Source of the DNA: an uncultured Verrucomicrobiae bacterium | GTDB lineage: Bacteria > Verrucomicrobiota > Verrucomicrobiia > Chthoniobacterales > Xiphinematobacteraceae | Length of the DNA stretch: 64,000 bases | Reading direction: 5' to 3' | Assembly: GCA_963706715.1 (NCBI GenBank) | Contig: CAVPNI010000001.1 | Location: 192,001 to 256,000 of the forward strand | Shown: one piece after another, positions 21,493 through 39,313 of the stretch | Numbering within the stretch: position 1 is the first letter of the stretch | Layout of the letters: the number at the start of each line of letters is the position of its first letter | Program-made: the position numbers and the translations under genes | Notes under the pieces: generated by a model | The model's input: only the letters and a program-made list of their open reading frames with translations | Database searches by the model: none | What the model was told of the DNA's origin: nothing

Positions 21493-21661
21493 AAGAAATC
21501 CTGTACGCTGCCCATGAACAGTCCGATTCATGGGATGAATCGGCAGCTTTTTTGGCTGTGCGCCCTACGAACCACCAACTACGAACTGTGCTATTGTTTG
21601 GACGCGGGTCCACTTTCCTGACCCACTCGTTATGTCGAGGAGCCAACTATGCTCTTCACCG

Positions 21662-22099
21662 TCACTTCTTTTCGTAATGAGATCCTTCATCCGACCCAAG
21701 TATGATCCGACCCGTCAACGTACGACCAACCGACAAGTTCCGAACCAACTTTTCTCGGATTTTTTCGAAATCTGGATCAATTTTTTCTCCATCAACGACA
21801 CTATAAATCCCAATAGTGATTACTGTCCTATATAGGAAGGATCGCACAGATCCCCATTCCCATGTGCCTTGCGCGGAAAAAACCCTTCCATCTTTAAGCC
21901 TGACCTGCTGTATGCAGCTTCCATCCGGCTTCAGTTCCAAGATCTCAGAACCGCCATCGGGAAGCCCAGGTGTTCCATCCTGCAGAACAGCTTGGTATAC
22001 TCCAATCACATCTTTTTTATTTACAGGCCATAGAATACAACCACCAAATCCCGTCACGATTGCAAGGATTACAACGCCAGCTATGCTCTTCACCGTCAC
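21662..22099 (-). CDS. Putative Rhs immunity lipoprotein (paralog 1)
   Basis: Lipobox-like GFGGC; paralog of 33966-34436, which directly follows the full rhs gene. Confidence 0.75.
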   Translation of the reverse strand: MTVKSIAGVVILAIVTGFGGCILWPVNKKDVIGVYQAVLQDGTPGLPDGGSEILELKPDGSCIQQVRLKDGRVFSAQGTWEWGSVRSFLYRTVITIGIYSVVDGEKIDPDFEKIREKLVRNLSVGRTLTGRIILGSDEGSHYEKK

Positions 22100-37400: not shown

Positions 37401-39313
37401 ACCTGTTTTGTTATGGAGGAATTAAATGTATTCCCAGCGGATTCGATTGTGTCGCCATTGACATTATTAATATGTGGATTTTTTTCAGGCGTTGGAATCC
37501 AGCGGTTTGCGTCACGCGGATCTTGAGTGTAAGCAATGACGAGATCATCGGCATCTACGGCGTAGAGTGTGGAACCATCGAGCGATGGAACCAAGGTGGG
37601 AACGCCGCTCATTTGCCAACCATATCCAAATTCGCTTTCCTCTAAATGTTGGCTTGAATGCTTGCGACCAATCTTCAGCGGAAATGCTTCTTTGAGTGTG
37701 ACGTCGATATTGTGAGTATTATATTCACCCGTAATAATGTTCACGGGCTCATTGCTAAATTTGTTCAGTCCAGGAAGGGCAGAAAGGTTTTTATAGAAAA
37801 TGGCAGCTTCCAAATTTACAATCTCTCTTTCAATCCGTGCCCGTGCTTTTTGTTCTGCGCTCTGCCTTTCGGATTGCTTTAATTGCTCTATGCTCTCCCA
37901 TGCGCGCTTAATCGCCGCTTGTTTTTCGGCTATGTACTGTTTATAGTTCGCTATACGCTGCTCTTCCTTCTTTCGCCTCCGCTCCAGTGTTGCTTCCCTT
38001 TCCGCTTGCTCCTTTAGGATACGTGGCCTTGCCTTGACTTCCGCCTGTTGATACAATTCCCTCAGGCGTTGCAACCGAGGTTCTCGAGGGATTCCCTGTT
38101 TTTCCATTTGAAAAAAATCCCATTCATACTCCTCCTTAATTCTTGCTCTATGATATTCCCGATATTCGGGTGCCCAATCACGCGCCCAATTTCCTCCTGC
38201 ATCTCGTCTATCATAATCTTTTTCAAATTCTTTTATTACCGTTTCTAGCGAGCGTCCCCAGTGCTCACGCTCAAGTTGCGATGCTCGCTCTGTTATCCGC
38301 TGTATCTTCTGATCACTTATTTTCTGCAATTTTTGAGTTACTTCGGTCAGTTTATCTTGTCTCCACCGAATTTCTCGATTGCGACTTTCGCTATCTCCGT
38401 TCCAAATCATTTCATCATCCACCCTGATCGCCATGGTCTCATCTCGCTGTTGAAACTCTTTAAACACCCGATATAATTCCCCCCTCACAATTGCCTTAAA
38501 TTCCTGTTCTTCTCTTTGCCATTCTGCATGCCACTGAGACCACCAGGTTACCTTCGTCCACCCATTCTCAAGAGCCTGCTTGTTTAACTCGTGCTCATCC
38601 CGAAGCTTCACTTTCTGCATCACCGAATCTAAGGCTAGGTTGATCCGCTCCTCATATTCTTGTTTCCACCGAGCTCGTTCCTGCTGACGGGCTTGTTCCT
38701 GTTGGTGAGCTTGCTCCTGCTGACGGGCTTGTTCCTGTTGGCGAGCTCGTTCCTGTTGGCGAGCTCGTTCCTGCTGACGAGCTTGTTCCTGCTGACGGGC
38801 CGGTTCCCGACGGCGAGGTTGTTTGTGATCTATCTTGACTCTACCAATTCCTCTCGATGGCATAAATGCTGTCGCAGAAGGAAATGACGTCACAGAAATC
38901 TGGGGCACCGGTCTGTGAATAGGTATTTTTGGTGTACGAATGCTGAAATCGAAGCGTGCGCTCCTCTTAATACGTCCACGCGTTTCTGTCTCAGCATGAT
39001 CGTAGCTCTCTGTCTGAGGAACCTTTATCTGCAAAAAAGAAGAAACCAGCTTGCCTAAAATGTCACCTCCATTTTCGAAGTTTTGGAATATCTTATCGGC
39101 CACTCCGTCTCTCGATCTCACAGATGTCTGGCCAAAACTCTTGTGTAATCTCCAGAGTATTTGAGAACTTCCTGCTCCTTCTATTAAGCCTCGTCGATCG
39201 GATTTTAACGCAATATTTTCTGTGGTAGCGTCATTATCCACCTGTTGCTCTACCTTTGCTTGGTGTGTGTTTCCTAAAAAAGGACTGATAGTAGGGTGTG
39301 AAATCTGATTCAT
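34433..39313 (-). CDS. Rhs/YD-repeat protein with coiled-coil N-terminus and C-terminal putative toxin domain
   Basis: EPVNIITGEY...FGYGW (Rhs N-cap), many YD repeats, polymorphic CT. Confidence 0.9.
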   Translation of the reverse strand: MNQISHPTISPFLGNTHQAKVEQQVDNDATTENIALKSDRRGLIEGAGSSQILWRLHKSFGQTSVRSRDGVADKIFQNFENGGDILGKLVSSFLQIKVPQTESYDHAETETRGRIKRSARFDFSIRTPKIPIHRPVPQISVTSFPSATAFMPSRGIGRVKIDHKQPRRREPARQQEQARQQERARQQERARQQEQARQQEQAHQQEQARQQERARWKQEYEERINLALDSVMQKVKLRDEHELNKQALENGWTKVTWWSQWHAEWQREEQEFKAIVRGELYRVFKEFQQRDETMAIRVDDEMIWNGDSESRNREIRWRQDKLTEVTQKLQKISDQKIQRITERASQLEREHWGRSLETVIKEFEKDYDRRDAGGNWARDWAPEYREYHRARIKEEYEWDFFQMEKQGIPREPRLQRLRELYQQAEVKARPRILKEQAEREATLERRRKKEEQRIANYKQYIAEKQAAIKRAWESIEQLKQSERQSAEQKARARIEREIVNLEAAIFYKNLSALPGLNKFSNEPVNIITGEYNTHNIDVTLKEAFPLKIGRKHSSQHLEESEFGYGWQMSGVPTLVPSLDGSTLYAVDADDLVIAYTQDPRDANRWIPTPEKNPHINNVNGDTIESAGNTFNSSITKQVSNGEVRYILADSSGDQRIFKMHRLRMHKLAKNGFVPNERLYLEKWQDKNGNYYAFELGNDYRDSDYGKLKKITSNTRKQIHFEYDQKGRIIKATTDEKGDILDVTEDEDLIELTSEDHIHYRYSEEGDLIEVSRSENNGNKRIQVTYNYEKTQQTIDNQQITFPTHRITSEKQIDGRVLEIDYNAQGRVSAQRATTGATSKPVRTSFTYENPQAPNKTATGVTIIKDADNNEIRLEHTDGLITKFTDPMGQTIHQEWYQVRDTSPGAYPSSLKQYTDRRGLVTQFKYDTKGNVIEKTVVGDMTGNGVSNTATTKFAYTRNNLLTSVIDPIGNEIAIFYEDSNNPRVPTRIERRVQGQVVFDIRNTASANNQGAQDLLQKLVLAAGTPDETTVEYRYNKQGLLTNQKTMGSGGPELTTQFEYNPGGELIKQIDDFGVSLYNHDPLKKQIRMERKNKANHLIDGQVIHYNDNGELTQIDQFNPEATGAKTAERSPDARTFYKYDRFGNLVEVSRPPIKMTYDAMGRMLTRSYQDDADSSKIHTEKFTYGPGGEIATYTNPQGGESKYFHTTDGKLHRRQNPDGTLQQWRYRLDGRLDKEILSDGSYWETTYRDAERTINRVKKDASQQTLSQESYIFDRRGNITSYTNGQNNTITRQYDGLNRLTAETTPGETPGAPQRQTTIAYSGNTITVTNSKGEKQIITQDASGRATSILTQGANNQKLSETTYAYSPEKISITTALFDASGNPVPIGSDEERRKQAWKIGAARISTLGIPVSMYIGVGGVVAKWWGLTNVADKLDTASVSILEFIADRWTEGNQGPMGRVIDEDIYWLTGLLKPKIGEHNQQLLAGWLTGNSANDLDYDPNSIQVRGMQTSLNVDRARVDAHSKGFPEGYEFVHKTIPAYGETILNPFTANWKSTAMQVGGYSGATIKDNHDGTVTFTIKNTAGANSFFLHAVPNIRRTSGPMSNVRQIFKWPEPKNPSLLPENQ
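38675..38800 (-). repeat. Seven tandem 18-bp coding repeats (ARQQE[Q/R])
   Basis: Counted directly; one unit is AHQQEQ. Confidence 0.95.

Follow-up and report, generated by a model that had tools for sequence, protein, structure and literature searches.

The stretch analysed here, the window, is a 64,000-nucleotide segment (C1:192001-256000) of G000, a 3.04-Mb, four-contig, 100%-complete genome of an uncultured Verrucomicrobiae bacterium. Positions are window coordinates unless a contig is named; G001 denotes a second species in the genus and G178 a genome from another family. The window holds a gene for an Rhs protein of 1626 amino acids (aa) that lacks the Rhs-associated core and ends in a C-terminal toxin domain (CT), followed by a candidate immunity gene. 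Its parts, all on the minus strand, are as follows, with the ratio of nonsynonymous to synonymous substitution rates written as dN/dS.

34433..39313, minus strand: core-less Rhs, 1626 aa, made up of a polar leader, QQEQAR repeats and a helical region, a DUF6531 plug, an N-terminal YD half-shell, the junction, a helical linker and CT1
38963..39313, minus strand: polar leader rich in Ser, Thr, Pro, Asn and Gln (S/T/P/N/Q), aa 1-117, without a hydrophobic Sec stretch and with R-I-K-R at aa 114-117
38652..38831, minus strand: 18-nt tandem repeat coding for QQE(Q/R)AR units (repeat family D2)
37535..37750, minus strand: DUF6531 N-plug, with Glu ahead of PVN..TGE
35183..37534, minus strand: retained N-terminal part of the YD shell, under constraint by dN/dS
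35135..35182, minus strand: deletion junction FDASGNPVPIGSDEER, where a YD turn runs into the core tail; compared with the module-3 type it has three codons fewer and no Asp equivalent
34436..34876, minus strand: toxin domain CT1 (~147 aa), an Rhs tip of wide occurrence that shows a weak fold similarity to colicin M and has a conserved NxAGxxSFFxH
33966..34478, minus strand: immunity candidate I1, a lipobox lipoprotein with a weak lipocalin-like match

The 1626-aa open reading frame (ORF) matches DUF6531 at aa 522-593 (PF20148, E 5e-10) and the YD/RHS repeats (PF05593, E 4e-24; TIGR01643, E 4e-17), and gives no match at E<=1 to TIGR03696, the model of the Rhs-associated core with its two DPxG-type motifs, which did recover the positive control P0068 at E 8e-14. 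The original prediction of an Rhs protein with an N-cap and YD repeats and no core is therefore confirmed by family models. A six-frame search of the whole genome with TIGR03696 gave 10 matches, 7 of them over the cut-off and 0 inside the window. Measured against the full-length Rhs on contig C49 of G001, the protein keeps ~54% of the plug-to-core length (856 of ~1585 aa); family search found no PAAR domain in it. The position of the N-plug cleavage Asp is occupied by Glu in the window protein and, among 54 distinct motif contexts, by Asp in 49, Glu in 4 and Gln in 1; taken alone the Glu would be weak evidence, as three other motifs also carry it. A promoter scan returned 4 sites against 2.4 expected.

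How the core was lost can be read from full-length relatives. In a codon-level comparison the canonical VNFCDPEGRYGKQAFNV and the core-less VNRFDSDEGVWKQHFNV stand in the same register with zero gaps, and DPEG of the canonical core tail becomes DSDE in the core-less junction through single-base changes. The CT1 family lies behind a canonical core in G000 (C4:4996-9240), in G001 (C49) and, in the other family, in G178 (C69), and the stretch between YD turn and core tail measures 701, 750, 848 and 728 aa in four full-length relatives. Because full-length paralogues bear the same CT family in ungapped register, comparison of these sequences indicates one ancestral deletion, of ~700-850 aa, that joined a YD turn in register to the Rhs core tail, much as had been predicted. 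The YD side of the junction resembles FDHLGNPLL of the full-length gene at C3:773 kb, whose core tail is LGNPVV, and a short common LGNP stretch may have guided the deletion. By the same comparisons the ancestor was evidently a verrucomicrobial Rhs of ~2200-3300 aa that began with a hydrophobic signal peptide and an N-domain and continued with plug, full shell, core and CT.

The junction recurs in two orphan modules within the window, and its strings begin at 35182 (FDASGNP), 33267 (FDAFGNP) and 24199 (FDPLGNP), in agreement with the junction position that the prediction had assigned to all three modules. In the window protein and in module 2 three further codons are gone, whereby the Asp equivalent was removed. 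A search of related genomes located the core-less junction in G001 as well (FDALGNTVWVNRVDSNEG), and a contig from an independent soil run spans 32996-33471 across the module-2 junction, gap-free and with 18 differences in 476 letters. An assembly artefact is ruled out by the occurrence of the junction at several loci, in a second species and in this independent run.

Four intact core-less genes (1626, 1396, 1391 and 1396 aa) and several orphans are present in G000. The DUF6531 plug and the first ~200 residues of the YD region are missing from three of the four and from the G001 copy, a gene on C11 that runs off the contig end so that its start is not readable. Trees of the YD segment recover the core-less rows as monophyletic with support of 100/100 (11 rows) and 99/97 (17 rows), and a tree with outgroups nests the core-less clade (100/99) within the full-length Rhs of the genus (97/97). 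By the Nei-Gojobori method, dN/dS over the last ~470 residues of the retained YD shell is 0.26, 0.27, 0.21 and 0.27 between divergent core-less pairs (upper 95% bound <=0.36) and 0.08-0.26 among three recent copies. The cap plus first repeats give 0.29, the CT 0.21-0.30 (one pair saturated), the immunity genes 0.14-0.43, the linker helices 0.40-0.50 and the leader 0.45-0.62, with two of the leader intervals including 1. Because the 0.21-0.27 of the core-less shells is comparable to the 0.24 found between two full-length paralogues over the YD segment, the substitution pattern indicates that the core-less Rhs is kept by selection in two species and is not decaying. Purifying selection acts on what remains of the shell, on the CT and on the immunity genes, and the orphan cassettes share the junction. 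There is, then, neither a significant core match nor a neutral dN/dS. The suggestion that the short architecture persisted while CTs diversified is upheld as to persistence, by monophyly in two species and a dN/dS of 0.21-0.27, and weakened as to diversification, which lies mostly within one toxin family.

The shell half is matched in 30 of 401 genomes of the class, G000 included (two candidates scored per genome, with loci extending up to 1.5 kb), and at 0 of 29 loci outside the genus, several of which ended early, does the junction occur in the residues following the shell match. A set of 200 CT-bearing proteins divides into 96 that match the core pattern, 61 that are too short upstream and 43 others, and among those 43 the FDxLGN junction is confined to G000 and G001, with an eroded form in P0002 and P0070. 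Two 0.9-Mb single-contig genomes of the same genus gave no match.

Downstream of the main gene lie the orphan modules and further immunity genes:

32452..33969, minus strand: orphan module 2, with a YD stub, junction FDAFGNPVPVNPTGS (33220-33267) and divergent CT2
32018..32455, minus strand: immunity candidate I2, a remote member of the I1 lipoprotein family
31774..31870, minus strand: YD remnant of another orphan (repeat family D9)
23471..24499, minus strand: orphan module 3, with a YD stub, junction FDPLGNPVLVNRFDSDEG (24152-24199) and a CT1-family CT3 broken near its end
23326..23490, no strand assigned: IS630-type miniature inverted-repeat transposable element (MITE), ~165 bp, inside CT3 (repeat families D15 and D18)
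21662..23274, minus strand: immunity array of I3 (22831-23274), a CT relic (22584-22868), I4 (22096-22587) and I5 (21662-22099)

That all frames stay open, as first supposed, proved wrong: modules 2 and 3 are orphan cassettes truncated at the N-terminus, and the MITE breaks CT3. The CTs had also been described as different from one another. CT2 does differ, and is possibly a remote member of the CT1 family (hhalign probability 11%) with a downstream gene that matches the immunity family (probability 65%, E 6e-5), so that CT2 and the CT1 family make two tip types on one scaffold at an identical junction. CT1 and CT3, on the other hand, are 63% identical, which rules out three unrelated CTs, and the 94-aa CT relic belongs to the same family. 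Two further orphans are chimeric (L055, G000 C2:378569-380434; L056, C3:493716-495251), combining one CT's linker helices with a second, more strongly eroded junction type and another CT variant, apparently a trace of cassette recombination. Broken core-less copies lie at C1:273 kb, C1:472 kb and C3:952 kb and in module 3.

A toxin tip with an adjacent immunity gene is found at all four intact loci, and gene order also shows orphan cassettes. The CT1 family comprises at least 422 clusters, unannotated, with variants 49-83% identical to one another and with N129, A131, G132, S135, F136, F137 and H139 conserved. The best predicted-fold neighbours of the CT are the colicin M (ColM) family and BtpeA-CTD (PDB 9jdi), with weak scores; the ColM motif DxYD(x5)HR is absent, and NxAGxxSFFxH stands in its place as positioned by eye, without structural alignment. 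Sequence searches of the PDB with CT profiles gave no match to the CT domain (one returned Rhs core stubs and weak unrelated rows), the immunity profile matched nothing in the PDB, Pfam gave no match for the CT, and the ESM Atlas returned nothing useful for a CT2 query (best 0.81). A search for related loci yielded three short metagenome contigs with CT and immunity gene, and two genome matches that were irrelevant. The same pair of CT and lipoprotein stands behind canonical cores at C4:5 kb, in G001 C49 and in G178. Lipobox lipoproteins behind the CT, together with the weak colicin M-like fold match, point to a periplasm-acting antibacterial: the tip is predicted to act there and to be neutralised by the adjacent lipoprotein, and it likely aims at the cell envelope with an unusual active site.

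The original prediction overlooked a change at the other end of the protein, where, to judge from the full-length relatives, a Sec-type signal has been replaced by the polar leader and the N-plug Asp by Glu. A hydrophobic Sec-type start, with a maximum 11-residue hydropathy of 1.95-2.71, is found in 5/5 signal-type Rhs (four G000 full-length paralogues with an intact start, and G001 C49); in the leader-type genes of G000 (8/8) this maximum is 0.18-0.77, and on an S/T/P/N/Q score all eight leaders rank within the top 3.3% of 2342 automatically called genes, that of the window protein within the top 1%. The window-type leader has six copies in the genome, all six with R-x-K/R-R, which we take to be a furin/kexin-type site. 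The same leader introduces L057 (C3:65944-67422), in which a Gly/Ser linker is followed by an unrelated Rhs-like tip and no YD repeats occur; that tip has no Pfam/NCBIfam match, and the small genes behind it may be immunity genes and orphan tips. The CT1 family, for its part, also occurs behind two further kinds of polar leader, in proteins that have coiled-coil stalks but lack YD (C1:574 kb, C3:952 kb; P0004-P0006), and three leader types besides that of the window bear an Rhs or CT1-family tip. Full cage, half cage, cap-less and YD-free forms would thus make up a set of states, their order unproven. A 365-aa orphan on the window's island (30184-31281, minus strand) combines a polar leader (top 0.4%) with RRRR at aa 58-61 and has no family match; it is probably an exported protein of the same leader class.

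The leaders also have counterparts among other large proteins of the genome. Twelve large proteins of G000 match the TcdA/TcdB pore family (e.g. L124-L127, L130, L132), a number unusually high for a verrucomicrobium; glycosyltransferase and C80 protease domains are also present in two of those scanned. In this set, chosen independently of the leader, R-x-K/R-R occurs (with first-ATG starts) at aa 49-76 in 10 of the 12, versus 107 of 1618 in the background, and a hydrophobic start is absent in 11 of the 12. In its polar start and R-x-K/R-R the Rhs leader has, at the level of sequence, the same build as the leaders of these large, host-directed toxins.

For an exit from the cell, G000 offers an injectisome-type type III secretion system (T3SS) whose genes lie in two separate places, C2:61-76 kb and C2:104-117 kb (L046, L047, L108). 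SctV and SctN are over the cut-off and SctW is below it, with further matches to SctC, SctD and a chaperone; SctV is present in 5/5 genomes of the genus, including both 0.9-Mb relatives. Two translocator candidates, one of them with a weak translocon match, rank at 1.0% and 2.2% on the S/T/P/N/Q score. Searches of this 100%-complete genome found no VgrG, TssC, phage sheath or HlyD over the cut-off; a VgrG match below it falls on an ORF whose translation resembles a phage tail protein. The common type VI secretion system (T6SS) route is ruled out by the lack of PAAR, TssC and an over-cut-off VgrG. Three other secretins are present in the genome. T3SS export of the core-less Rhs would be the simplest fit.

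The core-less locus behaves as a polymorphic toxin system and lacks two defining marks of canonical Rhs, the core and the N-plug Asp. Our preferred reading, put forward tentatively, is of a derived Rhs locus that lost half of its cage and its core and exchanged a Sec signal for a polar leader, its product being exported uncut in one step, by prediction through the T3SS, with a periplasm-acting colicin M-like tip and a lipoprotein that neutralises it. An Rhs exported by Sec would pass through the producer's periplasm, the tip's own site of action, so that a sealed cage and late autocleavage would be useful. A one-step exporter would skip the periplasm and thread an unfolded chain from its N-terminus, making a cage unnecessary, and autocleavage would sever the tip from its export signal. 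One-step export would in this way account for the joint loss of the Sec signal, the core and the N-plug Asp, and for the further erosion in the cap-less paralogues and the YD-free carriers; the exchange at the N-terminus gives the strongest hint as to why the cage disappeared. Further along the same path, an extracellular furin/kexin-like protease might clip the leader, the hydrophobic helices ahead of the CT might help reach the target envelope, and the orphan YD-junction-CT-immunity cassettes might recombine into the main gene by CT displacement. As for the half-shell, we can only guess that it is kept as a stalk, a receptor-binding scaffold or a recombination handle. It is possible, if somewhat doubtful, that in a host-associated verrucomicrobium Rhs antibacterial toxins moved from a Sec-exported, self-cleaving cage to the T3SS, giving up both autocleavage sites and half of the cage so that the tip, a new periplasm-acting toxin of colicin M-like type, stays tied to the export signal. 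If true, a toxin-immunity system aimed at bacteria would be leaving through an injectisome, and its full-cage, half-cage, cap-less and YD-free stages would be visible in one genome.

Several observations weigh against this preferred reading. The half-shell is as constrained as full cages are (0.21-0.27 vs 0.24), which is unexpected for a purely dispensable cage, and one-step export leaves strong constraint on the remaining repeats unexplained. A gene at G001:C18 (L062), outside the core-less clade, joins a polar leader to a full cage, a core and both Asp motifs, and therefore a leader swap does not force loss of the core; its leader, with two R-x-K-R motifs, is a fourth polar type and an independent swap. 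None of the other 4 genomes of the genus yielded the window leader, and because it is found only in G000, with the G001 gene cut at a contig end, the link between leader and deletion is drawn from one genome. The S/T/P/N/Q score is untrained and was defined after the leaders had been seen. Its top 5% takes in 5 or 6 of the 12 large toxins, according to which start is used, and, with automatic starts, only 2 of 11 ankyrin/SET genes. Three rules for P. syringae give no separation of the leaders from Sec signals, as 3/5 signal-type Rhs pass them too. T3SSs are known to target eukaryotic cells, and a furin-like site would imply a lumenal or extracellular compartment, not the cytosol.

Alternatively, the locus could be the same antibacterial one with its product leaving the cell by another way, through lysis, vesicles, the type IV system of an integrative and conjugative element or an unrecognised route, with the leader a pro-peptide clipped at R-x-K-R and the half-shell an open, functional scaffold. 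We consider this unlikely, though a serious contender. The leader score is heuristic; R-x-K/R-R, and not the polar start, is the sharpest feature in common with the large toxins (10/12), and a related basic motif occurs even in the Sec-type Rhs of G001 C49; the genome has its three further secretins; and full constraint acts on the shell. Against this reading, the missing Sec h-region makes a two-step route unlikely, neither HlyD, VgrG, TssC nor a sheath was found over the cut-off, and the injectisome is retained even by the 0.9-Mb relatives.

An improbable alternative turns the T3SS against the eukaryotic host, the former antibacterial tip now acting there and the lipoproteins guarding the producer or serving as orphan shields against kin. 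It would suit a leader built like those of the large-clostridial-toxin-like proteins and a tip without the ColM catalytic motif, and the available text of PMC3482391 describes polymorphic toxin domains reused against hosts. According to the same text, however, host-directed versions come without immunity genes, and the intact core-less genes keep a selected immunity gene directly downstream; the same CT-lipoprotein pair also follows canonical cores in another family (G178).

Even less probable is a half-shell that recloses, as a two-chain dimer cage or with CT helices plugging the open end, so that the tip is shielded until an outside protease frees it. Constraint on the retained repeats at the canonical level and the ~54% of plug-to-core length would favour such a cage, but the plug and first ~200 YD-region residues are missing in 3/4 intact G000 copies and in that of G001, and some genes bear a CT without any YD. 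Lastly, decaying Rhs fragments spread by insertion sequence activity in an eroding symbiont genome, with the immunity genes alone of consequence, are very improbable, for although insertions are many, broken copies lie at the four places listed above and the two 0.9-Mb relatives give no match, there are four intact ORFs of 1391-1626 aa, and neutral decay is largely refuted by dN/dS values of 0.08-0.26 for the recent copies and of 0.21-0.27 for divergent pairs, including one across species.

The wider neighbourhood is that of a mobile island, bounded as follows:

27555..27622, minus strand: attachment-site (att) boundary, a 68-nt exact copy of the tRNA-Thr 3' end (repeat family D14)
53437..54660, minus strand: island integrase (53437-54501) and tRNA-Thr(TGT) (54588-54660)
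26290..27429, minus strand: split second integrase adjoining an IS630 insertion, left of the att copy

Modules 1 (the main gene) and 2, the integrase and a primase-helicase lie on one 27-kb island between the att copy and the tRNA-Thr, and to this extent the proposed residence on tRNA-Thr islands is correct. Module 3 is outside the island, beside the broken integrase, where a search for a second att copy found none, and no tRNA-Thr lies near the other three intact core-less genes (C1:537 kb, C2:388 kb, C3:499 kb); a tRNA-Thr island as a general feature is ruled out, the link holding at the window locus only. Three tandem small ORFs at 28828-30020 (plus strand), the first with a weak RadC-like JAB match, are preceded by a double helix-turn-helix gene (27843-28517), and comparable groups adjoin other CT loci at C3:488 kb and C3:955 kb. 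A Schlafen/AlbA_2-HATPase-winged-helix gene at 40049-41443 (plus strand) is a possible defence gene on the island; near the island primase gene are three iteron-like 50-nt direct repeats with 61-64 nt spacing (42781-42955). A DUF7718 gene and its small partner (24633-25092, minus strand), possibly a toxin-antitoxin pair, have a partial 84% copy inside the island (43367-43483). Further off, a 528-aa ORF with a Ser-rich start (61704-63290, minus strand) has a SET-like stretch by eye and no match to PF00856. In G001, the full-length Sec-type Rhs on C49 is immediately preceded, on its upstream side, by a 917-aa repeat protein that is RCC1-like by eye (L043).

Cage closure and core autocleavage are regarded as obligatory for Rhs toxins, whose cleavage mutants are inactive in the available text of PMC8636562. 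Here one lineage keeps a half shell and no protease, under selection. Natural matched controls are at hand, since one and the same tip is borne by a full cage, by a half cage, by a stub that has lost its cap and by a carrier free of YD, and they make the purpose of the cage and the release of the tip directly testable. If T3SS export is true, an anti-eukaryote machine would also arm bacteria against bacteria inside the host.

Among the closest known systems are the full-length Sec-type Rhs of the genus (G000 C3:773 kb, C4:253 kb and C4:5 kb; G001 C49), whose shell half is 40-46% identical to the core-less one; those at C4:5 kb and G001 C49 carry, after the core, the CT family and lipoprotein immunity found in the window. 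They differ in a full shell, a TIGR03696 core and, where the start is intact, a hydrophobic signal with an N-domain of ~280 aa. Known Rhs orphans retain core sequence as a recombination handle, unlike the window orphans, in which YD repeats together with the deletion junction serve as the handle. In their tandem stub-CT-immunity cassettes behind the main gene they do resemble the orphan modules and C-terminal displacement described in the available portions of PMC2935791 and PMC3150448. The colicin M family (ColM, PaeM, syringacin M, pectocin M), as covered in the accessible part of PMC8469651, likewise has immunity proteins on the periplasm side, as proposed for the window CT, but its motif is DxYD(x5)HR in place of NxAGxxSFFxH, and the window immunity protein is an unrelated, lipocalin-like lipoprotein. 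Lymphostatin/LifA, an E. coli protein of the large-clostridial-toxin-like kind, sets a precedent as a very large toxin for which there is evidence of secretion by a T3SS (PMC12198386, available text); unlike the window Rhs, it is host-directed and has no immunity gene and no YD repeats; long Salmonella Rhs-like toxins are suspected T3SS substrates in the accessible text of 10.1101/2025.05.08.652813. A full-text literature search, with subscription journals and supplements outside its reach, found no core-less half-cage Rhs and no T3SS-exported antibacterial toxin-immunity pair. With the canonical toxins, Photorhabdus Rhs1 (PMC8636562) and Pseudomonas protegens RhsA (PMC8765631), the locus shares, as far as the available text of these papers goes, a DUF6531-type plug, YD repeats, a C-terminal toxin with downstream immunity, and orphan cassettes; it differs from them in that the window protein has no C-terminal aspartyl-protease plug, about half the shell is gone, the N-plug Asp is Glu, and neither PAAR nor a T6SS was found. 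Rhs1 needs both the core-tail Asp and the one preceding the N-plug Pro for cleavage and for toxicity, and is no longer toxic once either has been lost (PMC8636562, available text); because such cleavage mutants are inactive, the core-less protein must work differently.

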